The notes beneath the pieces were generated by a model. It saw nothing but the letters and a program-made list of their open reading frames with translations. It was not told the origin of the DNA and did no database searches. The translations under genes were made by a program, and so were the position numbers. From Acidobacteriota bacterium (GTDB taxonomy: Bacteria > Acidobacteriota > UBA6911), in contig OY761556.1 of the NCBI GenBank assembly GCA_963664705.1, positions 3,488,001 to 3,552,000 of the forward strand: DNA of 64,000 bases. Reading direction: 5' to 3'. Numbering within the stretch: position 1 is the first letter of the stretch; each line of letters begins with the position of its first letter. Of the stretch, positions 1-58,682 are shown in pieces.

Positions 1-57
1 CACGGCGCTCCTGGCTGCCACAACTGGGCAAATTGGCATCGGAAGGGAGGTTTAAAG

Positions 58-38629: not shown

Positions 38630-38812
38630 TCCTCGATCCTCCTTGTTGTAGTTTGACGAACTCAAGTGATTCAAGCCGGAGTGCGAGTGGCTTTCATCGC
38701 TTGGCATACTGCTTTGAGGCAACCAAATGCTTGATAAATCACGGTTATCAAATGCGTTTCCATGCTGCAAATCCCATGCACAGCATAGAAAATTTGACAA
38801 AATGCCGATGCG

Positions 38813-40665: not shown

Positions 40666-43545
40666 TCAGGCATCTGTGAGCTTTGAATGGGCCATCGGAT
40701 TGCTCTCAATAGCACCCCTCACTTTAGTAGCCAATTCCTGTATGCTGAATGGTTTTGCAAGGAAATGTATCCCTGGCTCCAGAACACCGTGATTCGCTAT
40801 GACAGTATCCGTATAGCCGGACATAAACAAACATTTGATATCCGGGCGAACGATCTTTAGCCTCTTCGCCAATTCCTTGCCGTTCATCTCCGGCATGATT
40901 AGGTCTGTTATCAATAGCTGAATGGTGCCGGCATGTTTCTCGGCCAGTTGAATCGCCATCCGCGGTGTCTCAGCCGCCAGCACAATATACCCCAGCCGCT
41001 CAAGCGCCGTTTTCCCCAGTTTCAAAATTGAACTCTCATCCTCGACCAGCAGAAGCGTCTCGCTTCCATGAGGTTCACTATCTCTCAAAGTGTTTTCCCG
41101 AACCTCGATTTCTTCCTGCTTCATTTCCCGAGGTATATATATTTTGAAGGTTGTTCCTTTCCCTGGTTCGCTATGAACATTGATGAAGCCTTTATTCTGT
41201 CTGACGATTCCATATACCGTGGATAATCCAAGACCGGTGCCGCGTCCCAGTTCTTTGGTAGTAAAAAACGGCTCGAAAATTTGGGTCAGCGTCTCCTTAT
41301 TCATCCCGCAGCCGCTGTCGCTTACTGCCAGCATTGCAAACTCGCCTGGCTGAAAATCCGATTGGGTATCATCCAATGCTCTATCAAGCTCGATATTTTT
41401 TGTCTCGATTGTAATCCTACCGATGCCATTGATAGAGTCGCGCGCGTTAACGCAGAGATTAGCCAGCACCTGATCAATCTGCGAGGGATCCATTCGAACC
41501 GGCCATAACTGAGAGTCCGGATGCCAGACCAGCTCAATATCCTCTCCGATAAGGCGCCTCAGCATCTTCAGCATCCCATCGATGGTATGGTTCAAATCGA
41601 GAATCTTTGGAACGATGGTTTGCCTGCGGGCAAAAGCAAGAAGCTGGCGAGTAATGCGAGCGGATTTCCCGGCAGCGTCCTGGATGGCGCTTAGGTCGGC
41701 ATGCAGCGGCAATCCCGGCTCCGCTTCGGCCAGCAACATCTCAGTGTGTCCAAGGATCACAGTCAGCATGTTGTTGAAATCGTGCGCTACACCGCCCGCC
41801 AGACGCCCCACGGACTCCATTTTCTGCGCCTGCATCAGTTGGGCTGTTAATTGCTGATGCTCAGTAATATCGCGCTTAACCGCAACAAATTGAATGATCC
41901 TGCCCGAAGCATCGCATACCGGCGAGATCGTGGCTTCCTCCGCATAGCGTTCACCGCTCCTCTTGCAGTTGATAAATTCGCCTTTCCAGGTTTTGCCGGA
42001 GGTGATTGTTTTCCACAAATTGCGATAAAATTCATTATTTTGCGCGCCGCTTTTCAATATGCGCGGATTTTTGCCGATCACTTCTGCGCACGTATAGCCC
42101 GTCACGGACTCAAAAGCGGGATTAACGTACTCGATGCGTCCATCCAAATTTGTGATACAGACGGCTTCGCCCGCCTGTTCAATGGCCGCAAGCAGACGCT
42201 CTCGCTCGACTTCAGCTCGCTTGCGGTCTGCAATATCATGCACAATGGAATGAAAGACCTCCTTGCCGGTCGTCACAATGCGGCTGCTGAACACTTCCAC
42301 ATCCCGAATGGAGCCATCCGCCCGGCGATGGCAAAACTCAAAATGAATTCGGTTTTGATCTTTGATCTTCTGCATCGCTTTGCGAATGTCCTCAGGCGGA
42401 AGCGTATTGATGTTTTGGATATTCATTTGCATCAAGCGCTCGCGGGGCCAGCCATAGTATTGGGTGGCCGCCTCATTGACATCCAGTATTGATCCTGTTT
42501 CAGGATCCATGATCATTTGGACCGCAGCATGGTCTTGGAATAACCGACGATATGTTTCTTCGCTCTCCCGCAAGGCTTGCTGAGTCCGATAGGTCTCGGT
42601 CACATCTCGAAAAACCAGCACCACACCGCTCACATCTCCGTTTTCATGACGAATAGGGGCAGCAGTGCTGGTAATGTGCCGTTCCGTTCCGTCGCTCGCT
42701 ACAAGTATGCTGTGATTCGCCCAACCGGAAGTTGTGTCCGTGCGCAACACCGTCTCTACTGGATTGAGATCAGCCTCCTGCGTATCGGTATGCTTGATCT
42801 TAAAGACCTCCGCCAAATTTTTCCCACGCGCGGCCTCACTGGACCAGCCGATGAGGCGTTCCGCTTCCGGATTCATAAGGACGATCCGACCTTCTGGATC
42901 AGTCGATATGACTGCTTCCCCCATGGACTGAAGAGTCACTTCGAGATTTTGCTTGGTTTTGCGCAGCTCCTCCACCGAGCGTGAAGCAAATGCCTGGTCG
43001 GCCAGAACCTTGCCGCCAAGAATGGTAGCTAGGGGATACAGCAATATCACTGGAAGACCAATATTATGTAAAGTCGGCAGGATGGATTTGGCAGGCAACA
43101 CAAAAATCATCGCAATCATGGCAACATGCACCGCAAGGCCGAAGATGTAAAGAGTTCTGACGGATACGCCCGATTCGGGTTTGACCCTGAAATGTGCGAC
43201 AATGCCAATGCTCATTGAGGACAGAATTACTAGCACTCCCATCACCGTCCCCATACCGCCAATCCATACCCGGCAGCCTATGGGCATCACCACCGCGGCA
43301 ACCGCCGCCCAGGGACCAAAATAGAGGGCGCATAGGCTTATCATTACGGATCGTCCATCAAAGATCAGCCCTGCTCCCAAATCCAGCGGTCTCAGCATTC
43401 CCACAACTGCGGCACCACCAAAGAGCATGCCTTGCAAAATCTCAGCCAATCGTCCCCTTTGGGGCTTATGTTTTTCAATGAAGCCGGAGATGATGCTGAG
43501 CGCCACCAGCAGCGCCAGGTTGAAGACCAAATTGAGGTAAATCAT
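40666..43545 (-). CDS. Hybrid sensor kinase: 5TM-LytS-type membrane domain, three PAS domains, HisKA/HATPase, REC
   Basis: 'GLIFDGRSV' LytS-like membrane region; PAS motifs; 'QAQKMESVGRLAGGVAHDFNN', 'NLCVNARD', 'FEPFFTTK..GRGTGLGL', 'LLITDLIMPEMNG'. Confidence 0.93.
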   Translation of the reverse strand: MIYLNLVFNLALLVALSIISGFIEKHKPQRGRLAEILQGMLFGGAAVVGMLRPLDLGAGLIFDGRSVMISLCALYFGPWAAVAAVVMPIGCRVWIGGMGTVMGVLVILSSMSIGIVAHFRVKPESGVSVRTLYIFGLAVHVAMIAMIFVLPAKSILPTLHNIGLPVILLYPLATILGGKVLADQAFASRSVEELRKTKQNLEVTLQSMGEAVISTDPEGRIVLMNPEAERLIGWSSEAARGKNLAEVFKIKHTDTQEADLNPVETVLRTDTTSGWANHSILVASDGTERHITSTAAPIRHENGDVSGVVLVFRDVTETYRTQQALRESEETYRRLFQDHAAVQMIMDPETGSILDVNEAATQYYGWPRERLMQMNIQNINTLPPEDIRKAMQKIKDQNRIHFEFCHRRADGSIRDVEVFSSRIVTTGKEVFHSIVHDIADRKRAEVERERLLAAIEQAGEAVCITNLDGRIEYVNPAFESVTGYTCAEVIGKNPRILKSGAQNNEFYRNLWKTITSGKTWKGEFINCKRSGERYAEEATISPVCDASGRIIQFVAVKRDITEHQQLTAQLMQAQKMESVGRLAGGVAHDFNNMLTVILGHTEMLLAEAEPGLPLHADLSAIQDAAGKSARITRQLLAFARRQTIVPKILDLNHTIDGMLKMLRRLIGEDIELVWHPDSQLWPVRMDPSQIDQVLANLCVNARDSINGIGRITIETKNIELDRALDDTQSDFQPGEFAMLAVSDSGCGMNKETLTQIFEPFFTTKELGRGTGLGLSTVYGIVRQNKGFINVHSEPGKGTTFKIYIPREMKQEEIEVRENTLRDSEPHGSETLLLVEDESSILKLGKTALERLGYIVLAAETPRMAIQLAEKHAGTIQLLITDLIMPEMNGKELAKRLKIVRPDIKCLFMSGYTDTVIANHGVLEPGIHFLAKPFSIQELATKVRGAIESNPMAHSKLTDA

Positions 43546-43794
43546 GCTTGCCTTCTCCCGAGAGGGCGTATGAGCAGTGGCTGTCGCCAGGATCCACAAA
43601 ACTTGCTAAGGCATAGCTATGCCTTCATCAATACAAGAACGCAAATAAGTGGAGGTCGCCTACTCAGTGCTGCTGATTTTTTGTCAGGCTTTACCCGCTT
43701 GGGTTATCGACATTTTCCGTGTAACGAATTAACAGGAATACAGAGGAGCGAGCAATTGCCCTTTCTCAAAAAAGGTGGACGAAGGGGACGTCCC

Positions 43795-44277
43795 TTAAGA
43801 CTGCCAGTAGGTGCGGTCGAGCGTGCGGTATTGGATAGCCTCGGAGACATGGCGGGCAAGAATCTTGTCCATGCCGTCCAGGTCGGCCATGGTCCTGGAG
43901 ACGCGCAGAATGCGGTCATACGCGCGCGCGGATAAACCAAGCTTTGTGATGGCATTCTCCATCTGTTTTTCCGACTCGGCATCCAGACTGCAAAAACGAC
44001 GAATCGTGCGCGCTGTCATCTGGGCGTTGCAGTAGATGCCAAAAGCCTCCAGTCGTTTGCACTGGGCATTCCGCGCGGCCAGGATGCGGCCACGAATTAC
44101 CGTGGACTCCTCACATTTATCATCCTGCGCCAATTCCTTGTATTTGACGGCCGGAACCTGGATATGTAAATCGATTCTGTCGAGCAAAGGCCCGGACACT
44201 CTTGCCAGGTATCGCTGAATCAGCGGCGGCGTGCAGGTGCAGTCGTGCTGCGTATCGCCAAAATACCCGCACTGGCA
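43795..44277 (-). pseudogene. comM: Orphan 3' fragment of comM (direct repeat copy 1, 483 bp)
   Basis: Matches 51414-51896 with 7 mismatches by my manual alignment. It starts at the CQCG codons and runs to the stop; no 5' half is attached. Confidence 0.95.
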
Positions 44278-44285
44278 TAGATGCG

Positions 44286-44705
44286 TTGCCTTTTTGCAGC
44301 TTAACCTTAAAGGCGAAGGTACCGCTATCCAAGCATTACCCTAAGCAAATCAATAGCTTAGGAGACCACCTTAGGAAGAGAAGATTGGACCTGCAGCTCC
44401 TTCAGAAGGAAGTCGCGGAGAAAATTGGAGTTGATACGTCTACCATTCACAATTGGGAGAAGCAACACACGCAGCCGGAAATACGGTTCGTTGCCCGGAT
44501 CATTGAATTCCTTGGATATGACCCGCTACCGCAGCCGGAATCATTTCCGGAGAAGTTGAAAACGCACCGATTAAGGCTGGGGCTGTCACAACGGAAGCTG
44601 GCAGCAAAACTCGGAGTGGATCCGAGCACGATCTATCACTGGGAATTAGGCAGCCACAAACCGGTAGAGGTCTTTTGCAGGTTGTTGGAAAGACTCCTGA
44701 AATAA
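44286..44705 (+). CDS. Tandem XRE-family HTH protein (two HTH_3-like domains); start uncertain
   Basis: 'LGDHLRKRRLDLQLLQKEVAEKIGVDTSTIHNWEK' and 'LKTHRLRLGLSQRKLAAKLGVDPSTIYHWE'. The frame is open across the comM junction; the first in-island start codon is TTG 44286. Confidence 0.8.
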   Translation: MPFCSLTLKAKVPLSKHYPKQINSLGDHLRKRRLDLQLLQKEVAEKIGVDTSTIHNWEKQHTQPEIRFVARIIEFLGYDPLPQPESFPEKLKTHRLRLGLSQRKLAAKLGVDPSTIYHWELGSHKPVEVFCRLLERLLK

Positions 44706-44841
44706 TGACAGTAAAAGAGAGAAGCCAAATCGAGGCCAAGAGGATTTATTGGAACAAACGTAACCGGGCCCAAATTGCGCGGTTGGGCAAATCATGCCCA
44801 TGCACCGCCTCCCTCGTCTTCCGGAGGGCCAAACACTTTGT

Positions 44842-44922
44842 TTAACAGGTTTCCGATGGACTGAACCCACTCCCAGTGAGACCATCTGAATCCACCAGAT
44901 CAGAATCATTTCTGACGTAAGC
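44842..44922 (-). pseudogene. Degenerate orphan RHS core-tip fragment
   Basis: Reads AYVRNDSDLVDSDG versus AYVRNDPLNRVDADG in the RHS gene; 15 identical nt (44905-44919 = 46203-46217). Confidence 0.6.
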
Positions 44923-45008
44923 TGGTTTTTGCGCAACGGAATCAAGCCTGCGCTACGCGATCGAATTCTGTAGGAAGCCATCCATGCCGCGTAGAGACTA
45001 GGCTTGCA

Positions 45009-45443
45009 TTAGGGATACTCAAGGCGCCGAGTTAGAATAATCATTTCTCTCGGGTTTGCTGTTGGGGCAATCTCATTCTTTCCCTCACTCACCATCCTCC
45101 TAACCACCCCCTTTTGAACCAATTCTCTTGTCTTTAGTATAAATCGCTGGTCACGGTCTGACTGCCACCACTTAGAACTTAGCGCAACGAGAAAACTGAC
45201 ATACCTTGGTGCGGGAGAAGGAAAGTTAATTTGAGCGGCTCCTTTGTCATCCGTAATTAGGATGACAGGCGATATGTAGTTAGCAGGAGTTTTATCCTCT
45301 TTTTCATACATTAGAGATATTGAAACTCGCTGACTTGGCAATGGATTCCCAGTTTCTACGTCGATGATGCGAACCGTTATTGTCTGCCCTAAACAGACTG
45401 GGACAAACAATAAATACAAAAGGTATAGAGCTGGCCGACTCAT
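45009..45443 (-). CDS. Exported protein, probable cognate immunity protein of the RHS toxin
   Basis: Strong AGGAGG RBS, signal peptide, small beta-rich domain ('ITVRIIDVETGNPLP...TDDKG'); lies directly downstream of the toxin with similarly low GC. Confidence 0.6.
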   Translation of the reverse strand: MSRPALYLLYLLFVPVCLGQTITVRIIDVETGNPLPSQRVSISLMYEKEDKTPANYISPVILITDDKGAAQINFPSPAPRYVSFLVALSSKWWQSDRDQRFILKTRELVQKGVVRRMVSEGKNEIAPTANPREMIILTRRLEYP

Positions 45444-45533
45444 TAATTCCTCCTAAAAAGGCAATTGTCGGTTGGTGTAACGGGTGTCGTAACTGGCCGG
45501 CATTCGCCGACGTTTAGGAAAACCATTTTCCCA

Positions 45534-48500
45534 TTAGTTTAGGTTCGTTCCATGACAATGCTCCCTTAGCTTGTCATCCCAATAGCCACTTGCATCAAGC
45601 GTATTCTCATCCAATGATTTCTGCGGATTACTAACCCATCCCAATACTGAGGCGATAGCAATATCTCCACTATTTAAGCCAATATGAATGCCCTCGTGTA
45701 AAACTGTTGCCCCCATTTCAACTGACAAGAAAACCGCGGGATCAAAAGCCGGTTTCCAGAGATCAATGGTCCACGTGTCCAGATTTGCAGTGGCCGTGGC
45801 ATTTTCTTGCCATTTATGATGGAATTGGTTAGGGTGTGAGACAATATTATAATCAAATTGCTGGAAGTCTGAAAAACGCTGATTTGCGTAGTACTCTCCC
45901 TGATATTTGTATATCGAATTGAAAAGTCCCATAACAAAGGACCCACAATCAGAGCTGATGTCACTAACCCATGATTTTGCGATCGATTCACCTGAATCAA
46001 CGAGTGTTTTCACAGGATCGGCCGGAATCGCTGGGATCTGTATTACTGGCTGAGGCGGTTGCATGCTATAAGCAAAGGCATACCAGTACAGTGCACTTCG
46101 TGCCATGAAATCGCTAAAATCAACTGGAGGGTTGTATTCGCTGGAACCAAGCCATCCAAGCGGGTTCCAAAACTTTCCATCCGCATCAACCCTATTTAGA
46201 GGATCATTTCTGACGTACGCGTACTTGTTCAGCGACTGCGGGTCGTAGATGTGCGCCGTCAAAGGATCCGGCGAGGTCCATCGCATTAGCGAGGTATTGT
46301 AGTACCTGGCACCGAAGTCCTTCAGACCTGTCTCCTCATCCACCTTGTGGCCGGGATATTGATCCGAGCCGCCGGAACCAAATGCCCTGGAATAAAAGCC
46401 GCTATCAACGATCTGGCTTCCGATTGTAACAACCTCCTCCTGCCGGTGATTCCTTCCCGGCCATTTGAGATTATCCACCACCGTGTAGCCAAAGCTGTTG
46501 TTCGTATAGCCCCTGGTGCGCCGCGCAACAAGCGCCGAGTTCATATAGATATTGTTCGTATATGTATTTTCATACGTCTGCCACGACGCGCTCTCCACCT
46601 TGTATTCGGCAAGGATTTCATTCCCGTTCCCATAAACATACGAATAGCTAACCGAGCGCTGTTCCCCATAATAATAATAGTTCCAGCTCTTTTTCACCCT
46701 GCGGCCCAGCGCATCGTACCGGTACGCTCCCAGCAACGCGCTATCCGACGTGCGATTCACTTGCCTGATCAGGCTGTTGGCATTGTAAAGGTACGAATTG
46801 GCTGCATCCTGAAGCTGGTTGCCCGACTGATCATAGTAAGATGCATACGCTGCAAGCCGGTTGTTCTGGTCATTGGCGGTCCCACTCACGTTCCCGTACC
46901 TGTCATAGCTCCAGTTGCTGCTCCACTCTGTTCCGTTCGCCGACTGCAGAGTTTCCGCCGACAACCGCCCCAATCGATCGTACCCATACGTCGACCATTT
47001 CGATTCCAGGCTATTGCCGTAAGCATCTTTTTTCGTGTAGTCGACCCGAGAGATCCGGTTGGATAGCGTGTACGAATAATTCAGGTCATATTCGTGGGGA
47101 GTCCCCCACATGCTATTCGGAACCGTTATCCGGATGATCGAAAGCCTCCCATAACTATCCGTAACATGTTCTTCCGAGCTGGTTCCGTAAGAAATCAGCG
47201 AAACCGATCCATCCACCAGCGCGTAGTCGACATCCGTGACATAGGTTCGGCTTGTCCCGGAAATGACAGTATCCACTATTCCCGTCGCTCGTCCGATTGG
47301 ATCGCGCGTGTATGTGATCTCATTGCCGTCAGGATAGGTCATACTTTGTAGATCCTTCTTCGAGCATCCGCAGCCAGCCGGCGTGTAGCTATAGTTTACA
47401 GGATAATTTGTGGAGTCCATACGCATGATCTGCTGCGTCACCCGGCCTCCCTGGTCGTAGCTCCAGCTATAACCGACACTCTCTCCCGTAATCTGAAGAC
47501 TGCTGTTGACCGTCCAGGCGCTCGTCATTCGCCCCTGCCCGTTTGTTATCAGACCTATCAGACTCGAACTCGATTCATCGTAACTCATCAGTGACCATGG
47601 AGTGCCGTCCGAATAGGACGTAACCAGCAACCGGTTCAGAGCATCATAGCTGTAGCCCGTGACGACACCCCGGGCATCCGTCTTCTGCGTCACGTTCCCG
47701 TTATCATCATAGACAAACGTTACCGTTCCGCTCTCGGGATTGGTTTCCGCTATCTTTCTGCCCAGGCTGTTGTATCCATAGGTCCTCACTTGAACCCCCT
47801 GCAGGATTTGTATCAGCCGGCCCGGAATATCATAGGAATATACGGTCTCAGGTCCCCAGTTCCCGTTGGAATCCTCCTCGATCACCTTTAGAATCTGCCC
47901 GGACTCATTGTGTTCCGTCCTTTTTCTTCGTCCCTCCTGATCGGTCGCTGTGGTTACGTTTCCCACATATTGATACGTTATCTGGCCGCCCGTTGCCGGG
48001 CTTATGCTGGTAATCCTGCCCAGCACATCATAGCTGTAGGTCGTAAACGCCGCCGTGCCCCCACGGCTGGGCAGCCACTTCTTCGTGGCCCGGCCATGAG
48101 CATCGTAGTCCGCTTTTTCATAAATGCTGTTTTCCGACGGGATCTCCTTCTGCGTTTTGATCGTGTTGCCCGAAGGATTGCTGTCAAAATAGGAATAACC
48201 CGATGAGTTGTTGGTGGTTACTTGGTAATCCTGATCATCATAAGAAAAATACGAATTTCCGGTCGGCGCCGATTGATTTACTTTTCTATTGAGCCCGTCA
48301 TAGGCATTGGTAACCTGGGCGCCGTTGGGGTCCGTCGTCGAATACAGATTCCCGGTCCACGCCGTACCAAGAAAACTCTCCCACTGGTACTGCGTCGTGT
48401 GATTCAGCGCATCGGTCGACGAGGCCGGATAGGGACCGACGGTATAGGAAATCGTGGACTGGCTGCCTTTGGGATCAACCTTCCTCACCACATTGCCAGC

Positions 48501-50291
48501 GATATCATATTGGGCATGAGACATAATCCATCGGGACTGCTCCTTGTACAGCGCTCCCGCACTGGTCGCGTTTCCCCGCGTCAAATATGCCGTCCAGTAT
48601 CCGGAATTGTGATTAACCGGATTATAGGCCATCGCCACTAAAGGATAAGCGCCATATTCGTCATAGGCGGTCTGTGTCCGGGTCAGCTCGACATTACCTG
48701 CGTTTCTTGTCGATACGGCCGACACCAGGTTGGTCAATCCCTGCGCAACATATTCCGGATGCGTCTCGTGCCAGTACTCCATTGCCGTTCTTCGAAGCAC
48801 CGAACCGCTGAACCCGGTTTCGACGGTTTCCTTCACATTGCCGGTCCCGTCGGCGGCGTAGGTCGTTGCCGTTTGCGTCGTTTTCCCATCGTCCAGCGTG
48901 GTTGTGGCAGACGTAATTCGCGGGTTCAGAACAAAAGTCTTCAGCGTATCGTCCTGACTCCAGGAATAACTCTGGGTTCTCAAAACAGTCTGCCCGTTAT
49001 AGGTTTTCCGCGTGACCGAGGTCGGCATGCCGTCAGACCAATTTGCTCCCGATGAGGTGTAGTTCAGGTTATAAATGGTTCGCCCGTCGATATCCGCCGC
49101 TACCTCAACAGAAGAGGGGTTGGATTTCGTCTGGTCAACGCTGTAGCTGATGGACCAGGTGGTGCTGGTTGTCGTCCCATTATTGTTAACGTACTCCGTC
49201 TTCTGAGACACCATTCTCTGGGGACGCCAGTTTGGAGTGCCGCCATCATAGATGCTGTTTGTTCCATAAGAATAGGCGACCCTGTCCCGGCTCGAGGTGG
49301 ATATCAGCGTCCATTGATAGGTATTATAATCATAGCCATACTCGCTGACGGAGTCGGTCACGACGGCCAGCTCGCCAAACTGATTGTACTGAAACACTTG
49401 TCCGAGACGTGTATTGCTCAAGCCTCCGCCATTAATTCCCGCCATCCATATCGAACTCAACACCTTTTCATTGGGGCCCGGGCTCTGAACCGTATAAGGA
49501 GACGGGAAGGACGGCGAAAGCGACGGTGTCGCGTATTGAAAATTAATCCATATGGGATAGCTCGCATGCATCACCCGGATGCTGCTGAGAAATCCATCCC
49601 CGCCATAGAAGAAAGTCATCTGCGGCACAGCCGTGTAAGGGTAGGTCGTTGTGTCGTATGAATTTCCCAGGCTGTCGTCAATCGAGGCCAGTTTCCCGGT
49701 GCCGGGCACATAGGTTGCAAATATCTGGTTTCCGTTTCGATCCCGAACTTCCGTTGCGTAGGAATTGGCCCCCACGGTATTTCCAAAAAACAGCTTTGTG
49801 CCTCCGACCATCGTCGCCACATTCGGATTGCCCGGCGTCAGCCGTATATAGGTGGAATCGACAGACCTCCAGTCGCCGCGTCCATAATCGGCTATCTCGT
49901 GCGAACTGCCGTCTGACATGACAAGTGTATAGCTGGATCTCCCTTGGACAAGGTATGGAAAGCCAAGCCGCCACCCCAATCCCACGGAACTTCCCAGTTC
50001 GGACAACCCCATCAGCGTGGTGCCGGTTCGCGTCCAGATCTTGCTGTTATAGGCCAATGACAGGGACAGATTCAAGCCGGCTCTGCCCGGTCGCGTCGGC
50101 AACGGCCTGCTGAAAACAATATTTCCGTTCACCAGGTTGATTTGTCCAAGTCCGCCCAGATAGGGAACAAATGAATACATCCCCTGCGCATTCATGCAGT
50201 CATAGGTTAATTCGGTTTCAATAAATGCGGTTCTTGTCGCGATGGGAAAAGTCAGGAATGCAATCAGAATGAGTAGGATTCGTTTTGTCAT
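45534..50291 (-). CDS. RHS/YD-repeat polymorphic toxin with signal peptide and C-terminal HExxH domain
   Basis: YD repeats (YDALNRL, YDALGRR), core 'DEETGLKDFGARYY...RWTSPDP...PQSLNKYAYVRNDPLNRVDADG', C-terminal 'TVLHEGIH'. Confidence 0.93.
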   Translation of the reverse strand: MTKRILLILIAFLTFPIATRTAFIETELTYDCMNAQGMYSFVPYLGGLGQINLVNGNIVFSRPLPTRPGRAGLNLSLSLAYNSKIWTRTGTTLMGLSELGSSVGLGWRLGFPYLVQGRSSYTLVMSDGSSHEIADYGRGDWRSVDSTYIRLTPGNPNVATMVGGTKLFFGNTVGANSYATEVRDRNGNQIFATYVPGTGKLASIDDSLGNSYDTTTYPYTAVPQMTFFYGGDGFLSSIRVMHASYPIWINFQYATPSLSPSFPSPYTVQSPGPNEKVLSSIWMAGINGGGLSNTRLGQVFQYNQFGELAVVTDSVSEYGYDYNTYQWTLISTSSRDRVAYSYGTNSIYDGGTPNWRPQRMVSQKTEYVNNNGTTTSTTWSISYSVDQTKSNPSSVEVAADIDGRTIYNLNYTSSGANWSDGMPTSVTRKTYNGQTVLRTQSYSWSQDDTLKTFVLNPRITSATTTLDDGKTTQTATTYAADGTGNVKETVETGFSGSVLRRTAMEYWHETHPEYVAQGLTNLVSAVSTRNAGNVELTRTQTAYDEYGAYPLVAMAYNPVNHNSGYWTAYLTRGNATSAGALYKEQSRWIMSHAQYDIAGNVVRKVDPKGSQSTISYTVGPYPASSTDALNHTTQYQWESFLGTAWTGNLYSTTDPNGAQVTNAYDGLNRKVNQSAPTGNSYFSYDDQDYQVTTNNSSGYSYFDSNPSGNTIKTQKEIPSENSIYEKADYDAHGRATKKWLPSRGGTAAFTTYSYDVLGRITSISPATGGQITYQYVGNVTTATDQEGRRKRTEHNESGQILKVIEEDSNGNWGPETVYSYDIPGRLIQILQGVQVRTYGYNSLGRKIAETNPESGTVTFVYDDNGNVTQKTDARGVVTGYSYDALNRLLVTSYSDGTPWSLMSYDESSSSLIGLITNGQGRMTSAWTVNSSLQITGESVGYSWSYDQGGRVTQQIMRMDSTNYPVNYSYTPAGCGCSKKDLQSMTYPDGNEITYTRDPIGRATGIVDTVISGTSRTYVTDVDYALVDGSVSLISYGTSSEEHVTDSYGRLSIIRITVPNSMWGTPHEYDLNYSYTLSNRISRVDYTKKDAYGNSLESKWSTYGYDRLGRLSAETLQSANGTEWSSNWSYDRYGNVSGTANDQNNRLAAYASYYDQSGNQLQDAANSYLYNANSLIRQVNRTSDSALLGAYRYDALGRRVKKSWNYYYYGEQRSVSYSYVYGNGNEILAEYKVESASWQTYENTYTNNIYMNSALVARRTRGYTNNSFGYTVVDNLKWPGRNHRQEEVVTIGSQIVDSGFYSRAFGSGGSDQYPGHKVDEETGLKDFGARYYNTSLMRWTSPDPLTAHIYDPQSLNKYAYVRNDPLNRVDADGKFWNPLGWLGSSEYNPPVDFSDFMARSALYWYAFAYSMQPPQPVIQIPAIPADPVKTLVDSGESIAKSWVSDISSDCGSFVMGLFNSIYKYQGEYYANQRFSDFQQFDYNIVSHPNQFHHKWQENATATANLDTWTIDLWKPAFDPAVFLSVEMGATVLHEGIHIGLNSGDIAIASVLGWVSNPQKSLDENTLDASGYWDDKLREHCHGTNLN

Positions 50292-50307
50292 GGCCCAGTT
50301 CTCCGCG

Positions 50308-50730
50308 CTATCTCGTGCGTTTCAGGACAATCACGTTTGACTTGAGGGTGGTGGAAGACAATTTGGCGGGCAAGCCTTCGGATAGGGCCCGGCTCCGGTC
50401 CAATGCCATGACCCGGACTTGATAGGATGCACCAATCCCGGTGCCATCCGATTTGCCGAAATGGCACAGGGCGCTCCATCGATACGCGCCCCCTTCTTCG
50501 TGAATGGTCGCGGGGAAAAGCCGCCAGGCCTTCAGGTGCGGCTCATGAACCAGCGCATAGATTATTTGATCGGGATTGTCGGTTGTTCCTTCTATCAACC
50601 CGCTGTAACCAACGGTCGTGCCTGCTTCCTCGATATTTTTCCGTTCGAGCTTATCAATTCTCAGGCTCGATTGAGCAAGGGCACTGCAACCAAACAGAAC
50701 AAGCGCAAGGCCAACCCAGAATGCTTTCAT
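50308..50730 (-). CDS. Hypothetical exported protein upstream of the RHS gene
   Basis: 'MKAFWVGLALVLFGCSALA' signal peptide after an AAGGAG RBS; beta-rich mature part; co-oriented 17 nt before RHS. Confidence 0.7.
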   Translation of the reverse strand: MKAFWVGLALVLFGCSALAQSSLRIDKLERKNIEEAGTTVGYSGLIEGTTDNPDQIIYALVHEPHLKAWRLFPATIHEEGGAYRWSALCHFGKSDGTGIGASYQVRVMALDRSRALSEGLPAKLSSTTLKSNVIVLKRTR

Positions 50731-50973
50731 GTCTCTCTCCTTAGCCTTTAAGGAACTGATAATTGCCATTTTGCGAGATTCCTGCTTTTGCTTTGCTTAT
50801 CAAAGGCATTCACATCACAAGCTTCGCTTCACAAGACACTATGCCATCCCAGAAGAAGCGGGCCGCTCTACGGCGCCGGATTAGTGCCGGAGCTTAATTA
50901 TTGCTGTAGCTAAATTCTTGATCGTGAACTCAGTTTTATGGCGGAAGTGAAAATCTGTCTAGCGCGGATTTCG

Positions 50974-51275
50974 CTAATTTCGTGGATTGCGTTTCTTTCG
51001 CGAAATACGCGAATTGCGCGTGTCGTCCCGCAGGACAGTTTCATCATTGCAGTTAACGATATATCGCTCCACGTCCGGAAGGTATACTTGGTATTTCCTG
51101 CCATTCCGTACAGCGAGAACACAACCCTGCTCAACCCATAGCTGCAGGGTTCGCTGGGAAAGGCCAAGATCATTGGCCGCCTGCGCTGTCGAAGCAAACA
51201 AAAGCTTGGCTTATCTGATGAAGCCGATAGGAAAAGACTTAGCAACTCCTGTTCATTCCTTGGATGTTTTTCCAT
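50974..51275 (-). pseudogene. Excisionase/MerR-like small HTH protein, probably frameshifted
   Basis: 'FASTAQAANDLGLSQRTLQLWVEQGCVLAVRNGRKYQVYL' is an HTH_17-like pattern. A plausible N-terminus (ATG 51275, MEKHPRNEQELLSLFLS) is in a different frame and would join with one extra base near 51210. An intact gene from TTG 51201 cannot be excluded. Confidence 0.6.
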
Positions 51276-51413
51276 GCGTCCCGCCAATCTTCCACTTATG
51301 GAACCACGCGTCGTTTGGGCACAGCTTGGCCCCTTAATATGCAAGAACGCAAGAGAGTGGAAATCGCCTACTCTCTTTTTCACATTTTTCGGCAAAACCG
51401 CGATTACTTCTAT

Positions 51414-52952
51414 TTACGACTGCCAGTAGGTGCGGTCGAGCGTGCGGTATTGGATAGCCTCGGAGACATGGCGGGCAAGAATCTTGTCCATGCCGTCCAG
51501 GTCGGCCATGGTCCTGGAGACGCGCAGAATGCGGTCATACGCGCGCGCGGATAAACCAAGCTTTGTGATGGCATTCTCCATCTGTTTTTCCGACTCGGCA
51601 TCCAGCTTGCAAAAACGACGGATCGTGCGCGCTGTCATCTGGGCGTTGCAGTAGATGCCAAAAGCCTCCAGTCGTTTGCACTGAGCATTCCGCGCGGCCA
51701 GGATGCGTCCACGAATTACCGTGGACTCCTCACATTTATCATCCTGCGCCAATTCCTTGTATTTGACGGCCGGCACCTGGATATGTAAATCGATTCTGTC
51801 GAGCAAAGGCCCGGACACTCTTGCCAGGTATCGCTGAATCAGCGGCGGCGTGCAGGTGCAGTCGTGCTGCGTATCGCCAAAATACCCGCACTGGCAGGGA
51901 TTCATCGCGGCAGCCAGCATGAACCGCGCGGGAAACGTCAGGGACATTGCGGCTCTTGAAATTGTGACCTCCCCGTCCTCCAGCGGCTGTCGCAGCACAT
52001 CCAGGACATGGCGATGAAACTCCGGAAGCTCGTCGAGAAAAAGCACGCCGTTATGCGCCAGGCTTACCTCTCCGGGCCGTGGCATTGTGCCGCCGCCGAT
52101 GAGGCCGGCATCGGAAATGGTATGATGCGGAGCGCGAAAGGGGCGCATGGCAATCAGCCCGGCCTGATTGGAAAGCAGCCCGGCTACAGAATGTATTTTG
52201 GTCGTTTCAATCGCCTCATCAAAAGACATCGGTGGAAGAATTGTCGGTAGCCGACGCGCCAGCATTGTTTTTCCCGAGCCTGGGGGCCCGATCAAAATAA
52301 TATTGTGCCCGCCAGCCACCGCGACCTCCATCGCGCGCTTGGCCTGGTATTGCCCCTTCACGTCTCTGAAATCGACATCGTAATGGCTGTGTTGCGCAAG
52401 AAGCTGTTCTCGATCCACCGCCAGCGGGATCCAGGGCTGTTTGCCATTGAGCAAATCGACCACCTGGGCCAGCGACCGCACGGGAAATGTGCGTACGCCA
52501 TCTACCACCGCGGCCTCGCGTGCATTGGCTTCCGGCACAATCAGGTGTTGCAGTCCCTTTTCTCGGGCCATCGATGCCATGGACAGGGTGCCTTTGACCG
52601 GCCGGATCGATCCATCCAAAGACAGTTCACCCATGAACAGGTAAGCCGACAGATTCTGCATCCGGACACACCCGGATGCCCCCAGGATCCCTACTGCCAT
52701 GGGAAGATCAAACCCGGACCCTTCTTTTTTCAGATCCGCCGGGGCAAGGTTGATCGTTATCCGCTGGGCAGGAAGAACAAATCCGCAATTCCGGAGAGCC
52801 GCTCGTACGCGCTCACTGCTCTCACGAACCGCAGTATCGGGAAGCCCGACCGTCATAAAATCCAGCTTTTGCCCGGAACTGAGGTCCACCTCCACTGAGA
52901 TTGGATATGCCTTGATGCCAAAGACAGCCGCTGATTGGACTCGAAACAACAT
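51414..52952 (-). CDS. comM: YifB/ComM Mg-chelatase-like AAA+ ATPase (intact)
   Basis: '[11 protein letters not shown]', '[20 protein letters not shown]', GPPGSGKT, 'RAPHHT', 'LFLDELPEF', 'AAMNPCQCG', 'SGPLLDRID'. Confidence 0.96.
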
Positions 52953-53098
52953 GGGCCTGATACTCCTTTCGTATATCCAATGGCTTCCTGTCATTTTGAG
53001 CGAAAATATTTTGCTAATTTGCTCAACCCTGCCACTAGAAGAAGGATCCTTATGCGGGAACTGGTATAATCAGGCTTTATTCAATAAGGGGCGTTCTC

Positions 53099-54736
53099 AT
53101 CCACAAGATAGACGGCAATACTCTAGGAATTAAGCAATCGCAGCGCGGCGCTCTCGAGCGCGTCTTCCGGCGGCGTGTCGCGCCTGACCAGGTCGTTTCG
53201 CCGGAGCTGGCCAAATACTTGTCCGCTCTTTCCAGGGAACTTGGCCGCCAGGTCGGCGTTTTTTTGTCCAGAGACGGTATGATTCGAAATGTGATCCTCG
53301 GGGATGCCACGCACCTTGAGCTGCCAGACATCGGCCGGCTTCGGGGCGGCACCGGAAGGTTTCGCGGACTCCGTCTTGTCCATACACACCTGCGCGGCGA
53401 GCCGGTTACGCAGGATGATCTGAACGATCTCACCCTTTTGCGCCTGGATCTGATCGCCGTTATCCACGCCACGAACGAGGGGGACGCGGGCAGGATCGAA
53501 CTGGCGCACATTCTTCCGATCACGGATGGCGATCTGAAATCGGAACCCTTCCGAAAGATCGAAGCTCGCGACATCTACCATCTGAAGTTTGATTTCGAAG
53601 AGGAAATCCGGGCGCTCGAAAGCGAGTTCTCGCGCACCACGGAACACAGCGCTGAGGAGACACTCCATGAACGGGCCCTGGTCTTGTGTATCACTCCAGG
53701 CGAAGCGGCCCGATCAGAGGTAACCGAACTCGTCCGGGCTGCAGGGGTTGAGATTGCGGAAGTCATGACCTTCGCGGGAGGCCAGATCCACCCGCGTACG
53801 GTTGTCGGCCAGGGTCGACTCCAGCGCATAGCCCTGGCCGCAATGCGGCGCGGCGCGGATGTAGCCATTTTCGATATCGACCTGAAGCCCAACCAGGCGC
53901 GCGCCTTCGAAGATACCACGGGATTGAAAGCCGTCGACCGCACGCAGTTGATCCTCGACATCTTTGCACAGCGCGCGCGCAGCCGTGACGGTAAGCTTCA
54001 GGTGGAACTGGCGCAATTGAAGTATTCGCTTCCCCGGCTGACCGAGGAAGATGCCGGGCTGTCGCGACTGGTCGGAGGAATCGGGGGCCGCGGCCCTGGA
54101 GAAACGGTTCTGGAAATAGGACGACGGCGCGCACGCAGCCGGATTCGTCACCTTGAAAAAGAAATCCAGCAGTTATCCAAACAGCGCAGCGTGCGCCGGC
54201 ACCGGCGCAATCGCCAGGGCCTGCCAGTGCTTTCGATTATCGGTTACACGAACGCGGGAAAAAGCACGCTGCTCAATGCCCTGACGGAAAGCGAGATCGA
54301 CACCGCCGACCAGATGTTCGTTACGCTGGATCCCACCTCGCGACGATTGCGTTTCCCGAAGCAGGGAGACGTGATCATCACCGATACGGTCGGATTTATT
54401 CGCGATCTGCCCCCGGATCTTGTGACCGCATTCCGCGCTACCCTCGAGGAATTGTCCGATGCGGACCTGCTGCTCCATGTCGTGGACGCTTCGGATCCGG
54501 GCCTTGAGAGAAAGATGGATGCGGTAAATCGCGTCCTGAACGACCTGGAGCTCCACACGGTTCCGCGCCTGGTTGTCATGAACAAATCCGACCGGGTTGA
54601 GCCGGCGGTCATGGACGGGATTTGCCGGCGCTATGAAGCGGTTGCGGTCAGCGCGCTTAAACGACAGGGGTTGAGCGCCCTGATTCAGACAGCCGAAAAA
54701 CGGATCCGTCACCAACCGCTGTCCCCGGGGGCGTAA
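53099..54736 (+). CDS. hflX: Ribosome-splitting GTPase HflX, long form; proposed non-AUG start
   Basis: 'DRTQLILDIFAQRA', 'GRGPGE', GYTNAGKS, 'TLDPT', DTVG, NKSD. A homolog-like N-terminus 'IHKIDGNTLGIKQSQ..ALERVFRRR' lies upstream of the ORF-track start at 53219. Confidence 0.93.
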   Translation: MHKIDGNTLGIKQSQRGALERVFRRRVAPDQVVSPELAKYLSALSRELGRQVGVFLSRDGMIRNVILGDATHLELPDIGRLRGGTGRFRGLRLVHTHLRGEPVTQDDLNDLTLLRLDLIAVIHATNEGDAGRIELAHILPITDGDLKSEPFRKIEARDIYHLKFDFEEEIRALESEFSRTTEHSAEETLHERALVLCITPGEAARSEVTELVRAAGVEIAEVMTFAGGQIHPRTVVGQGRLQRIALAAMRRGADVAIFDIDLKPNQARAFEDTTGLKAVDRTQLILDIFAQRARSRDGKLQVELAQLKYSLPRLTEEDAGLSRLVGGIGGRGPGETVLEIGRRRARSRIRHLEKEIQQLSKQRSVRRHRRNRQGLPVLSIIGYTNAGKSTLLNALTESEIDTADQMFVTLDPTSRRLRFPKQGDVIITDTVGFIRDLPPDLVTAFRATLEELSDADLLLHVVDASDPGLERKMDAVNRVLNDLELHTVPRLVVMNKSDRVEPAVMDGICRRYEAVAVSALKRQGLSALIQTAEKRIRHQPLSPGA

Positions 54737-54945: not shown

Positions 54946-56688
54946 ATGAAAAATAGGCAACTCTTAGCATGCATTGCTGTCGTGATCATGGCAGCAGTGG
55001 CATTTGCCGGCTTTGCACCCGTGCAGGCACAGCAAAAGGCCACCGCCAAGCCCAAGATTACGGTGCTGAATCCCGCTATCGAAAGCAAGATGGCGGATCG
55101 CATACCACTTTCTCCTCGCCTGGACACGCTCGAGGGGAAGACACTGTACCTGGTCGATATCAACTGGGGCGGCCCCGAGGCAGCCTACAGCGTGTTTGAG
55201 GAAATGCAGGCCTGGTTTGCTCAAAACATGCCCAGTGTGAAAATCATCATCAAACGAAAAGCCGGATCGTACACCACAGACGATAAGCCGCTGTGGGCGG
55301 AGATCAAAAAGAATGGAAATGCCGCTTTGATCGGCATATCGGGTTGAGATGGCTGCACGTCGGCCGTGAGCCAACATTGCAGAAGTCTCGAGTTGATGGG
55401 CATTCCGACCTCAGGCGCAGCTGCTGCCAATATCGTGAGGTATGCGGTCGGGTATGATTTTGAATATACAAACGGCATGCCGATTCGCTATGTCGGATTC
55501 CCGTTCCCGGTAGCCGGACAGCCGAAGGCTGTTCACCACAAGTATGTTTTTGAAAGCAAAGATGTATTGACCGGCAAGCCGATGATGCAGGCCATCATCG
55601 ACAATCTTACAAAGCCGCTGACTGATAAGGAAAAGATCGCGGGAAAGCCTCCTGAAGCCAAAGTTGAGCCACGGCTTCTGCCTCCCGGTAACGAGGATGA
55701 ACTGCAGCAAGTCTTCAAGGATAATGATTGGACCGACTATAATCCCATCATTCTTCCGACTGAAGAACGAGTCGCTGCAATGCTGAAGGGAACCAGCCGA
55801 AAACCCACCGATAAAGTAAAAGAACTGAATTGGCCGGGCGGAAAGCGGAACCTCACAGTCGAAAAGGTTGCGGTCTGCGCCGTGATGGCGGGTGCAAAAC
55901 CGGAACACTTCCCCCTAATCCTGGCCCTGGCAACCGCACTTCCGTTCGGAAATTCGACAAGCTCCATGGCAAACATGATTCTTGTCAACGGTCCGATACG
56001 GAACCAGGTAAAGATGAACTACGGGCTGAACACCATGGGACCGCACAATGAAGTGAACGCGGTTCTGGGAAGATCCTTCACGTTGATGTCGAAAACCGCC
56101 GGAAATCTGCACTCCGGAAAAACGACGTTCAGCGGTCTGGGAAGCAACCTGCAATACAACAATGTGTGCTTCGCGGAAAACGAAGAAGCGCTGCCCGCAG
56201 GATGGAATCCTGTCCACGTACAGATGGGCAACAAGCCGACCGACAGCACTGTGACAGTGGCGACCGGCTGGTCCTATATCTCGAGCGTGGGTGAAGTGCA
56301 AAGAGGATATCCTCCACAGTTCCTGATGCGTGATTACATGCGATCGCTGTCCGGCATGGGCGGCACGGTAATCATGGATCCGTCCGTGGCAGCCCTGATG
56401 AAGGATGCCCAGGGATTCAATAGCAAAGAAGACCTGTCCAAGTGGCTTGCTCAGAATATCGAGAAGACCGTATCGTCCTATTGGGGCAATGGCGTGATCT
56501 CGACGATGTTTGCAACCATGGCGATTCAGGGACTCGAACCCTATGCATCCCAGAAGAAGATGCCCCCCGACACACTGATCAAGCCCTTCCAAAGGGTTGG
56601 AGTGGTTGTAGCGGGTGGCGGGCAGACCACCTGGTTTGTGACCGATTTTGGTCTCGGCCGGGGTGAACTGGTCGATAACTGGAAGTAG
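54946..56688 (+). CDS. Exported UGSC-like selenoprotein paralog B (~580 aa, Sec at UGA 55345-55347, motif G-U-D-G-C)
   Basis: ORFs 54946-55347 and 55366-56688 are in frame, joined by 'IGISG-TGA-GAT GGC TGC ACG' = U-D-G-C-T. Imperfect hairpin at 55353-55382 with loop CGUGA; signal peptide. Confidence 0.85.
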
Positions 56689-56718
56689 TCGACAGTCGAT
56701 AATCGGCAGTCGGCGGGG

Positions 56719-56766
56719 AAGGCCGCAGAACGGCATCGGGAATCCCGATTCAGTTCTGCGGCCTTT
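56719..56766 (+). terminator. Hairpin/terminator after paralog B
   Basis: AAGGCCGCAGAAC ... GTTCTGCGGCCTTT inverted repeat. Confidence 0.6.
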
Positions 56767-56942
56767 CTGTTGTCGCAAGACTCTAACTTCATAAAAAACA
56801 ATTATTTAGAGTCTGTGTTTCCGCAAGGCCACAAAACGCATGTTTTGCCTGGCCCGCAGCAGTTTTAATGAAATTCCCTCACCCCTGGGACGTAGTTACC
56901 CTATGGTGGCATCAATTTAACTAAAACACGGAGGAATCACGC

Positions 56943-58682
56943 ATGAAGTTGCGTACCGCAGTAATTGCAATTTTGTGCCTGGGTCTTTGTCTCAGTTTCT
57001 CTGCACTGAGCATTCAGACCTATGCGCAAGGAAAGAAGGCAGCTCCGGCTGGTAAACCGGTGGCCGTGGCCAAGATTACGGTACTCAGTCCGATGGGTAC
57101 ACCGCCCCCGATTACCCTCAAGAACCAGGCACCGCGCCTGGATACGCTTGACGGCAAAACCATTTATCTGGTGAACACGGGATTTGTCGGAACTGAACGC
57201 CTGATGGAAGTCATGACGGAGTGGTTCAAGGAAAATCATCCCAAAACCACCATCGTCAACAAAAGAAATCCTTCAATGGATCAGCCCAATAAACAGCTGT
57301 GGGCTGAGCTCAATGAGAAGGCTGACGGCGTCATCATCGGGCTGGGTCATTGAAGTGTTTGCGCGCCTGGGGCGGTTCGCCTCAGCATTGACATCGAATC
57401 CAACTTCAAGAAACCCTCAATCCCTCTCATCCTGTCTGATTTCGCCAAACAGGAAGCCGAAGTCGCTCTTACCAGCGGTATGCCTGGCCTCCGCATTCAA
57501 TATTTCCGTGGCCCGGTTTGGGGCAAAACCAACGAACAGCTCAAGAAACAGATTATTGAAGGCCTCAATCCGGTAACAGGAAAACCGGTGATGCCAGAAA
57601 TCATCGAAAAACTCACCAAACCTCTGACCGCCGAGGAAAAGAAGACCGGGGATATCAAGGTGGATAAAGGCCCGGCCACTTTCACCGGCACGCCGGATGA
57701 ACTCCAGAAGCTGTTCCTTGACAAACGAATGACCGATTTCATGCCCATCATTCTTCCGACCGAAGAGAAGGTTGAAGAAATGCTGAAGGGCACCAGCCAC
57801 CGTCCGGACGAGCTTCTTGGCAAAATGAACCCGGGCTCCGAAGCTGGTGACGTTTGGACCTATACGGTCAAAGATGCCGCCGTTAACGCCGTTATGGCCG
57901 GTGCCAAACCGGAATACTTCCCGGTTATCCTGGCACTCGGTTCGACTGGTTCGCCGAGCGTCAATGTGTCCGATAACGGCTTCATGGCCGGTGCCGTCGT
58001 AAACGGCCCCATCCGTGACGAAATCAAACTCAATTACGAAATCGGCGCCGTGGGTCCCTATGCCCAGGCGAATACGACGATCGGAAGAGCCTGGAACCTG
58101 CTGTCCATCAATGGCGGGAACTGCGGCAAAGTCGGGACGACCTACATGGGCACCGTAGGAAATGCCCACAACTATGTCAGCCCTATCATTGCCGAAAACG
58201 AACGCGATTCTCCATTCAAGCCGCTGGCCGTACGCCGCGGATTCAAGGAGAATGAGAATATCGTCACCCTGTTCATGGGCTGGGGTATTCTTTCCGCGAA
58301 AAACTGGAAAGCCGATGTTTGGGGATCCAACATGAATTATCCCCAGATCATCAAAGACATTTTCAACCAGCAGGATCCCATGTTCGGGACGATCGCCGTC
58401 CTGAGTCCGCCTATTGCCAATTTCGTGAAAGATGCCGGCTATGATACAGCCGAAAAATTCACGGAATGGGTAACGGCGCCTGTGAATCCCCCTGCAGCTC
58501 CGGCTGGCGCTCCTGCCGGCGGGCCTGCCGGTCGCGGCCCCGGTGGACCTGGCGGACGCGGCGGCATGGGCATGATGGGCGGCGCATTCAGCGTCGTCGT
58601 CACTGGCGGCACCAACAACAACTACTGGATGATGGGCGGCATGAGGCCTGGTCAGTCCATTCAGATTGATAAATGGCGGTAG
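56943..58682 (+). CDS. Exported UGSC-like selenoprotein paralog C (~579 aa, Sec at UGA 57351-57353, motif H-U-S-V-C)
   Basis: ORFs 56943-57353 and 57480-58682 are in frame with 42 sense codons between them, homologous to paralog A (SVCAPGAVRLSIDIES). Hairpin CUGGGGCG-GUU-CGCCUCAG at 57367-57385; signal peptide. Confidence 0.87.

Follow-up and report, generated by a model that had tools for sequence, protein, structure and literature searches.

An island without a recombinase behind an intact comM gene in an Acidobacteriota bacterium, probably a cassette of a serine-recombinase family

An island in the genome of an Acidobacteriota bacterium (GCA_963664705.1, contig OY761556.1), placed between an intact comM gene and a second comM 3' end, is on balance a recombinase-less cassette of a serine-recombinase family that targets Cys353 of comM, likely left by a visiting complete element. 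The best reading of such cassettes in general is that they are cis-mobilised units dropped by a large serine recombinase (LSR) element, with homologous swapping in addition among close kin. All coordinates below refer to the window, which is the whole stretch of 64,000 nucleotides that was analysed.

The window contains an intact comM/yifB gene of 512 aa (51414..52952, reverse strand) that scores above the TIGR00368 cut-off and possesses PF01078, PF13541 and PF13335. Its 3' third, from Cys353 to the stop codon, constitutes the head copy (51414..51896, reverse strand), which was putatively brought in by the cassette and joined to a host 5' part; the two together restore a complete attB target. 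The tail copy (43795..44277, reverse strand), which would be the host's own 3' third in displaced form, begins at an attR-type junction with the TGC of Cys353 in the CQCG motif and is open to its stop codon, where the repeat ends. The two comM 3' ends form a direct repeat of 483 bp with a spacing of 7,619 bp and differ at 7 nt in 6 codons (98.5% identity), five of the changes being synonymous and one a K/S exchange. The repeats, the intact gene and the CQCG start of the second copy are all as the first-pass annotation had described them, and apart from the intact gene and the tail copy the 6.89-Mb single-contig genome contains no comM 3' copy. A dispersed host REP-like repeat directly follows the tail-copy stop (43768..43794, reverse strand), and a repeat resembling it sits after comM in the relatives G005 and G017. 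A 56-nt motif downstream of the head copy (51339..51394, no strand assigned) is 73% alike to 43631-43686; by pattern it occurs at 3 of 341 loci, with a few partial genome matches besides. Rfam gave no genuine match over 43000-53500, and folding of the motifs downstream of the comM copies gave no z-score under -1. Genus-mates are approximately 77% identical in DNA.

The cargo (44278-51413, 7,136 bp) begins on the comM side with an excisionase-like HTH_17/MerR protein of 75 aa (50974..51201, reverse strand; TIGR01764 just above cut-off), which exhibits 53% identity to part of a gene in a tRNA-Ser prophage of the same genome. A hypothetical protein (50308..50769, reverse strand; likely start 50730) has a 96% identical copy in that prophage and is followed by an Rhs/YD protein of 1585 aa with a hydrophobic N-terminus (45534..50291, reverse strand). 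Residues 1-1380 of the latter share 96% identity with the prophage Rhs protein, whereas the C-terminal domains differ. YD/RHS repeats, an RHS core and a variable C-terminal domain are all present, as in Rhs polymorphic-toxin loci; the C-terminal domain contains an HExxH motif, and its Atlas matches to metallopeptidase clusters (0.85-0.88) serve as leads only. The domain is a putative toxin and no immunity gene for it is evident, so that, of the earlier label 'toxin island', the Rhs protein with its HExxH C-terminus stands and the toxin itself is presumptive. A hypothetical protein of 144 aa (45009..45443, reverse strand) has an 85% identical copy in the prophage locus, where the Rhs C-terminus differs, and the last gene encodes a double-HTH Xre protein of 139 aa from a TTG start (44286..44705, forward strand). 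The earlier statement that the cargo holds no recognisable recombinase was borne out by Pfam searches on 14 ORFs of the region and by custom HMMs for LSRs and for tyrosine recombinases, each of which matched its positive controls; the tyrosine recombinase that an integron would possess was likewise absent from the span in the custom HMM search. PF07508 is absent genome-wide (the genome is 98% complete) and no LSR was found in trans, the best match being a short resolvase-like stretch with 36% identity over 87 aa. Profile searches found no integration or transfer genes in the island, where the 75-aa excisionase-like gene is present.

Sequence comparison identifies the left edge of the island as the attachment junction of an LSR family whose elements interrupt comM at Cys353. 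The TG crossover dinucleotide (44276..44277, reverse strand) supplies codon positions 1 and 2 of Cys353, and the element-side (P) arm (44278..44299, reverse strand) forms an inverted repeat with the arm found, in relatives, at the 3' end of the recombinase gene. Of the 22 nt ahead of the TG, all are identical in G007 and 21 in G003. In these two genomes of the same genus, comM is split at the TG junction, an Xre gene common to both shares 66% aa identity with that of the island, and an LSR of 503-506 aa abuts the comM 5' part at the end opposite the Xre junction; the element arms of the pair are inverted repeats over 16/24 and 14/24 nt. The first-pass annotation had proposed that an element integrated at the CxC site and that related genomes be searched for a serine recombinase there or for several comM 3' copies; the junction and Xre gene in common with the G003 and G007 elements agree with the former, a serine recombinase is present in both of these relatives, and several comM 3' copies occur in arrays across phyla.

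Circles computed for G003 and G007 each contain a single open frame, of 652 and 645 codons, and the circular-form site falls within this LSR-Xre fusion gene. Natural LSR-Xre fusions exist in P0009 and P0004, and among metagenome stretches with an intact site 11 of 59 have at least 494 open codons running into the Xre part. The Xre gene is the C-terminal portion cut off from the recombinase gene, with which it is in frame in the circular forms. The first-pass annotation had overlooked this aspect of the gene. The present genome has a single element-side arm and no attL, its comM is unsplit and an LSR is absent, so the island is not a complete LSR element; its left end is an attR-type junction and its right end is the re-formed attB, at which an attL would arise only once a complete element inserts. 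The viral_contigs set gave 0 matches to the attP pattern and 0 to the attR pattern, and one locus (L289) is compatible with a carrier as well as with a chromosomal array.

The layout of comM 3' third, cargo, Xre gene and junction is found in many phyla, often stacked in arrays of 2-4 units, and a literature search found no description of this architecture. Both an Xre gene and a comM 3' part accompany 105 of the 122 loci with the junction pattern; where at least 9 kb of upstream DNA is available (n=34), an intact same-strand comM is present at 9 and an LSR at 0. Two to three full copies are stacked in G118, G140, G141, G142 and G160. The custom HMMs detected an LSR in 0 of 24 inter-repeat spans and a tyrosine recombinase in 1, and 12 of 24 array genomes lack a PF07508 match. 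A predicted intermediate, in which a comM 5' part and an LSR precede two junction-bearing full 3' copies, was seen in G130, G137, G138 and G154 among 54 genomes picked for carrying the junction, and an old array into which a new element had inserted would also look like this. Near-identical whole-unit repeats in G118 (99.2% over 8.2 kb), G140 (97%) and G142 (97.7%) look like tandem duplications.

The comM 3' copies are open for 153-176 codons in 44 of 46 cases; the G071 head copy (frameshift, 86 codons) and the G139 first copy (not extracted) were set aside, the second copies of G188 and G199 lie outside the strict junction pattern and that of G129 is partial. Over 30 non-identical pairs of 62-98% identity, dN/dS is 0.03-0.32, omitting the degenerate G144 middle copy and short distal fragments (G118, G071, G140, L087, L095, L141), whose existence means that some copies do decay. 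Of 16 genomes tested, 5 have copies that differ in GC3 by at least 0.06, and in all 5 the last copy is closer to the 5' part (for example, 0.91 / 0.62 / 0.87 in G135 and 0.84 / 0.53 / 0.77 in G148); the other 11 exhibit no polarity, and in G118 the head copy is the closer one. Trees concur in G148 (support 1.0) and G138 (0.87). In the testable arrays (5 by GC3, 2 of them also by trees), the last copy is the host's own and the 5'-proximal copy foreign. The earlier claim that both copies evolved as functional alleles, one of them imported, is supported by dN/dS, GC3 and trees alike.

To judge from these data, a cycle of two standard LSR reactions would suffice to produce the island; in studied LSRs, the productive pairings reported in the portion of the source concerned are only attP x attB and attL x attR (PMC3783163). 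A complete element in comM, ahead of a cassette, would excise with a distal junction and take the cassette and a comM 3' third along. In a new cell, attP x attB recombination would insert element and cassette into an intact comM, and a later attL x attR excision that used the closest internal junction would remove the recombinase part, so that the imported 3' third completes comM and the cargo is stranded ahead of the displaced host 3' third. As the target is re-formed, the cycle could be repeated, with new units added at the comM-proximal end. In close relatives, homologous recombination via comM and the Xre-junction flank is likely also to swap or duplicate units.

The alternative that RecA-type recombination alone moves the cassettes, the junction being only a scar, is less likely. 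Either a circle excised between the 483-bp repeats would re-enter comM by one crossover, or incoming DNA would replace an LSR element between the comM 5' part and the Xre-junction flank, restoring comM. The 98.5% identity of the window's copies favours it, as do the duplicated units of G118, G140 and G142 and a genome without a cognate LSR, and at such identity a RecA-type route for the window's unit, possible in itself, needs no recombinase; recombination tracts spanning comM are reported for Acinetobacter baumannii in part of a further study (PMC11472951). In the G148 genus panel, whose pairs share genomes, only 2 strong pairwise breakpoints out of 20 are placed within 30 nt of the TG, which is covered by the interval in 7 of the 20; the others extend from about -250 to +210 nt, several of them 110-250 nt upstream of the TG, with two near -700, a spread that is the mark of homologous recombination. 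Against this stand neighbouring copies of merely 62-81% identity in seven genomes (G135, G138, G140, G141, G148, G154 and G126) and a switch at the CxC codon, placed by GC3 in G135 at 0 (interval -20..2 codons) and by comparison with L265 in G148 at +26 nt (interval -7..44); in many arrays this combination indicates a serine recombinase. Taken singly, 7 of 11 strong GC3 change points have an interval that includes the site, whereas the pooled GC3 step at codon 0 is biased by the choice of genomes. Recombinase-less units also keep the recombinase-binding arm, although the arm encodes the Xre start as well. The earlier suggestion that units of comM 3' end and cargo stack behind comM is upheld, and homologous recombination as its main route is not established.

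The first-pass annotation had also considered a repair of comM by incoming DNA that took the recombinase end away. As a one-off event, an LSR element would have split comM, and DNA from an empty-site strain would have joined by homology at comM and by illegitimate recombination within the element, with loss of the recombinase end. The same layout results, the copy differences have a synonymous bias, and the 56-nt motif behind the head copy, being similar to one downstream of the tail copy, could be a retained donor flank. However, the motif is only 73% alike against 98.5% for the coding copies, homology stops at the stop codon in the window and in most inspected arrays, and arrays of 2-4 units in many phyla demand repeats of a rare event; this recurrence is left unexplained by the proposal, which is very improbable.

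Contigs of three short-read runs (X1-X3), which derive from one sample, probably the genome's source, and so are not independent, contain all four junctions at similar depth. None covers the whole unit, and the repeat is collapsed at higher depth (15.7 against 6-10 in X1, 24.8 against 10-20 in X2, 28.1 against 15-19 in X3); contig depths alone, a weak test, give no sign of amplification or excision. Most improbable of all is a two-strain assembly chimera or an in-place comM 3' duplication followed by decay, to which the 6% contamination estimate, the unspanned unit, the Rhs repeat in the prophage and 5 synonymous changes of 6 (for which a simple decay model gives P = 0.04, a small but not negligible value) lend something, but against which stand the four junctions in contigs, the single-contig genome, a boundary that is a family-wide attachment junction and a layout repeated in many independent genomes. 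The stretch is absent from raw-read run X6, and a second-sample contig (X5) is identical to comM over 52326-51900 and has 99 more letters, a hint, not counted as evidence, of a different site in a conspecific strain.

An insertion in comM is usually taken as mobile DNA disabling transformation (PMC12378983). The cassettes have the opposite effect, leaving comM whole as their cargo of Rhs proteins and of defence-like and surface genes accumulates behind it; mobile DNA can likely build up at this site in such a way with the gene unbroken. Through the cassettes, species also appear to trade the helicase's C-terminal third, in which case comM phylogenies and tallies of 'disrupted' comM genes would be affected. 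It is tentatively proposed that comM may anchor a cross-phylum, polarised gene-capture array without a resident recombinase, where visiting LSR elements load and unload cassettes that each supply a working ComM C-terminal third, giving chimeric ComM across species, and where the LSR alternates between two forms, a short one when integrated and an HTH fusion in the circle, the latter setting direction. The attachment site divides the family's recombinase gene into catalytic and double-HTH parts, which offers a directly testable candidate for the control of directionality in an LSR family that is large and mined for biotechnology.

Several known systems share features with the island. The prophage e14 at icd restores its target by supplying a synonymous-biased 3' gene fragment, and SSV-type integrase genes contain attP and are split by it; both use tyrosine recombinases borne by the element, and elements of these types are not known to form recombinase-less stacks. 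The staphylococcal SCC and pseudo-SCC elements share with the cassette family the tandem arrangement of serine-recombinase islands. Of predicted site-specific LSRs, 12.4% target homologues of Mg-chelatase/comM/yifB, according to part of one survey (PMC10083194). The available portions of the descriptions of phage WO sr1WO (PMC9203015) and alphaproteobacterial pipolins (10.1101/2024.05.22.595293) show the same target gene, a serine-recombinase junction and a 2-bp core, and the sr1WO prophage end also carries HTH_XRE genes (PMC9203015). In those portions, the elements bring their recombinase along and lie within or beside the gene, which sr1WO leaves split, whereas the island has no recombinase, a whole comM and a replacement 3' third of 483 bp; a recombinase-Xre fusion across attP, found in the island's family, is not mentioned in those portions or in that of the LSR-target survey. 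As in the CIMEs and tandem accretion covered in part of a review (PMC5704250), the units are integrase-less and stacked at one target. CIMEs are also bounded by att sites and movable with an adjacent complete element; of the island's ends one is an attR-type junction and the other a re-formed attB, and joint movement would be compatible with genome states such as the predicted intermediate. Accretion as described relies on short repeats at the end of a gene, and serine-recombinase IMEs disrupt their target gene (PMC5704250); here, the site lies within the gene and each unit brings 160 comM codons, and therefore hosts end up with chimeric ComM. The Dehalococcoides ssrA islands with DsiB (PMC3146451) are tandem serine-recombinase islands, 15 of them without an integration module, in which the 3' end of the integrase gene overlaps attL, a likeness to the island's family. 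They differ in a 20-bp repeat at the end of an RNA gene and a second recombinase, DsiA, and the part of that report concerned shows neither a large protein-coding replacement nor a protein domain added upon circularisation (PMC3146451).

The window carries an intact comM/yifB gene on the minus strand (52952-51414), followed by 7,136 bp of cargo and a second copy of the comM 3' third (44277-43795), which forms a 483-bp direct repeat with its counterpart in the intact gene (51414-51896) and spans the Cys353 codon to the stop codon. The copies differ at 7 nt, affecting five synonymous codons and one K/S codon, and a recount confirmed this layout, with the repeat beginning at the CQCG codons, as given in the first-pass annotation. 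Among named sequences, those nearest to this comM, at 64-67%, are Acidobacteriota records. The cargo comprises an excisionase-like gene of 75 aa, a small gene of hypothetical product, the gene for an Rhs protein of 1585 aa, and a gene of 144 aa; a double-HTH Xre gene lies on the opposite strand. No recombinase was found in the cargo, as first reported, and no large serine recombinase (LSR) was found in the whole genome (G000). All four unit junctions are present in short-read contigs, probably from the source sample, in which the comM repeat is collapsed at raised depth and none of the contigs covers the entire unit. The parts of the cassette were identified with high confidence; the island is real and belongs to a variant of serine-recombinase accretion that is widespread and apparently undescribed.

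Several other features were observed. A 56-nt motif (73% alike) lies 3' of both comM stops at unequal offsets (51339-51394 and 43631-43686); there is a third, partial one near genome position 2941927, and the G068 cassette has one too. For 51030-51171, run X5 from a second sample has the excisionase-like gene followed by differing sequence, a hint of variable cargo. Positions 36944-38800 and 54946-58682 hold three paralogous pairs, each of a small secreted-looking protein and a 400-440-aa protein, as DNA repeats 71-80% alike; a search with one of the 400-440-aa proteins gave no Pfam match. ARAGORN placed three tRNA-SeC and three tRNA-Cys genes in G000.

The comparison covered 61 related genomes. 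In same-genus G003 and G007, comM is in two pieces (1-355 and 349-511) and a 503-506-aa LSR adjoins the 5' piece. The element-side arm ahead of their 3' pieces matches the window's arm (44278-44299) at 22/22 nt in G007 and 21/22 nt in G003 and is accompanied by the same Xre gene, 66% identical to the window's. The core common to these junctions and the window is TG, the first two bases of the Cys353 codon, and the element arms of G003 and G007 form imperfect inverted repeats. The left edge of the window's island is therefore the attachment junction of a comM-splitting LSR family, which backs the earlier proposal that an element integrated at the CxC site. In the computed circular form, the LSR and Xre share one reading frame of 645-652 codons, and two natural recombinase-HTH fusions (P0009 and P0004) have the same joint; the window's Xre gene is thus the cut-off C-terminal part of this family's recombinase gene. 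Among 59 metagenome stretches with an intact site (L283-L341), the frame is open for at least 494 codons into the Xre part in 11, open up to the contig edge in 7, and stopped earlier in 41. The full recombinase frame is absent upstream of 41/59 of these attP-type sites, and Xre genes flank some of the sites on both sides, as if these were joints of recombinase-less units. In G024 (L047 / L060), comM is split near residue 311, a second site within the gene, by another LSR that shares 28% identity with the one in G003.

Positions 44882-50736 match, at 90-95% except in the Rhs C-terminal region, a module of a 58-kb prophage in the same genome, inserted in tRNA-Ser outside the window (G000:C1:2539673-2598055). 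One of its two Rhs loci is the window's three-gene module at this identity with another C-terminal domain, a His-rich nuclease-like one which we take from its motif to be HNH-like, with an immunity-like ORF after it. In the window, the Rhs protein ends in an HExxH domain, for which Atlas leads were all <0.9, and is likely a toxin, judging by its family. No immunity gene for it was evident, and the 'toxin' in the earlier label of a toxin island is putative.

Of 116 genomes in an unbiased sample at class level, 88 gave a match and three have intact comM and same-strand 3' copies on a single contig: G000, G071, and G118. The G071 unit fits Rhs and excisionase-like genes, Xre and the junction into 9.6 kb, and G118 has two full units with unlike Rhs C-termini plus one more fragment. 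A junction-pattern search returned at least 123 stretches from many phyla; among the matches listed, Xre and a comM 3' part occur together in 105 of 122 junction loci, and the 34 loci with at least 9 kb upstream include intact comM in 9 and an LSR in none. Within 54 genomes picked for possessing the junction, 13 have intact comM followed by one to three full copies on a single contig, and 4 have LSR-split comM with two full junction-bearing copies. At least two comM 3' pieces lie on one contig in 7/41 sampled Lysobacter genomes, the genus of G148, with the junction verified in 5 of the 7. No LSR was found in 24 inter-repeat spans, one of which contains tyrosine recombinases. Cargo differs between arrays, including Rhs, defence-like and surface proteins, as judged from ORF listings. 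The suggested stacking of comM-3'-plus-cargo units behind comM is supported.

At L221 (G133), L224 (G168), L223 with L101 (G131), L135 (G147), and L222 (G132), a comM 5' part and LSR (no LSR detected in G132) adjoin another comM of full length, oriented the same way or inverted; some of these elements seem to contain an entire comM, or else to have undergone inversion at the site. Far from its comM locus, G118 has an Xre-junction-comM 3' unit embedded in a long Rhs array on C5 (about 1,963,000-1,991,000; L070-L071); the 60 kb examined there contained neither an LSR nor a comM 5' part.

Of 46 comM 3' copies, 44 have 153-176 open codons, and 30 non-identical copy pairs, a set excluding shorter decayed fragments, show dN/dS of 0.03-0.32 at 62-98.5% identity. 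The copies thus diverged as working genes in separate lineages and were imported, which supports the earlier view of two functional alleles, one imported. Decayed shorter fragments also exist at distal positions. Arrays are polarised, the last copy matching the host and the nearest being foreign: third-position GC is clearly unequal between copies in 5/16 genomes, where the last copy fits the host 5' part and the nearest does not, and trees concur for G148 and G138. The window's copies are too similar for this test; a dispersed host repeat directly follows its tail copy, and a similar repeat follows comM in G005 and G017. In the G148 panel, many intact comM genes are low in GC3 across their 3' third, which suggests that chimeric genes are common there. 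Within L246-L273, from this genus, third-position GC in many intact comM genes is 0.77-0.89 in the 5' part versus 0.51-0.69 in the 3' third, and one clade takes in most of these 3' thirds.

Direct entry of a free cassette circle into attB is not expected, since the circle would bear an attR-type site and, in the accessible text on studied LSRs, productive pairings are attP x attB and, given a directionality factor, attL x attR (PMC3783163). The simplest route built from standard reactions would be pick-up and drop-off: a complete element would excise using a distal junction, integrate in a new cell, and then excise with the nearest junction, leaving an imported 3' third that completes comM. 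This would account for an exact start at the TG, for copies that have diverged but stay open, for the polarity, and for the lack of a recombinase. Genome states matching the cycle were observed, although a new element atop an old array would look just the same. Homologous recombination probably acts as well: in the G148 panel, the breakpoints between pairs are scattered (2/20 within 30 nt of TG; TG inside 7/20 intervals), against a purely site-specific account, and certain adjacent units are 97-99% identical across kilobases. Recombination, as first proposed, therefore probably contributes; with the window's copies 98.5% alike it is feasible there, and recombination alone is the less likely route by which the unit was placed. 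We put arrival by drop-off with recombination alongside at slightly better than even.

In the accessible parts of the literature, comM homologues are targeted by 12.4% of predicted site-specific LSRs (PMC10083194), a comM homologue is split by sr1WO of phage WO, whose end bears Xre genes (PMC9203015), and yifB serves as the target of pipolins (10.1101/2024.05.22.595293). Insertion in comM is regarded as disruption in reviews (PMC12378983), and for Acinetobacter baumannii, recombination was weighed as a means of comM repair and found to be no commoner than chance would give (PMC11472951). The present architecture was not found described in a full-text search, mostly outside subscription journals. 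As far as the accessible accounts go, the cassettes work as cis-mobilizable elements do in accretion (PMC5704250) and resemble Dehalococcoides ssrA islands, where an integrase gene likewise overlaps attL (PMC3146451), but differ from both in having a site within the gene, a replacement piece of 160 codons, and an HTH domain gained on circularisation.
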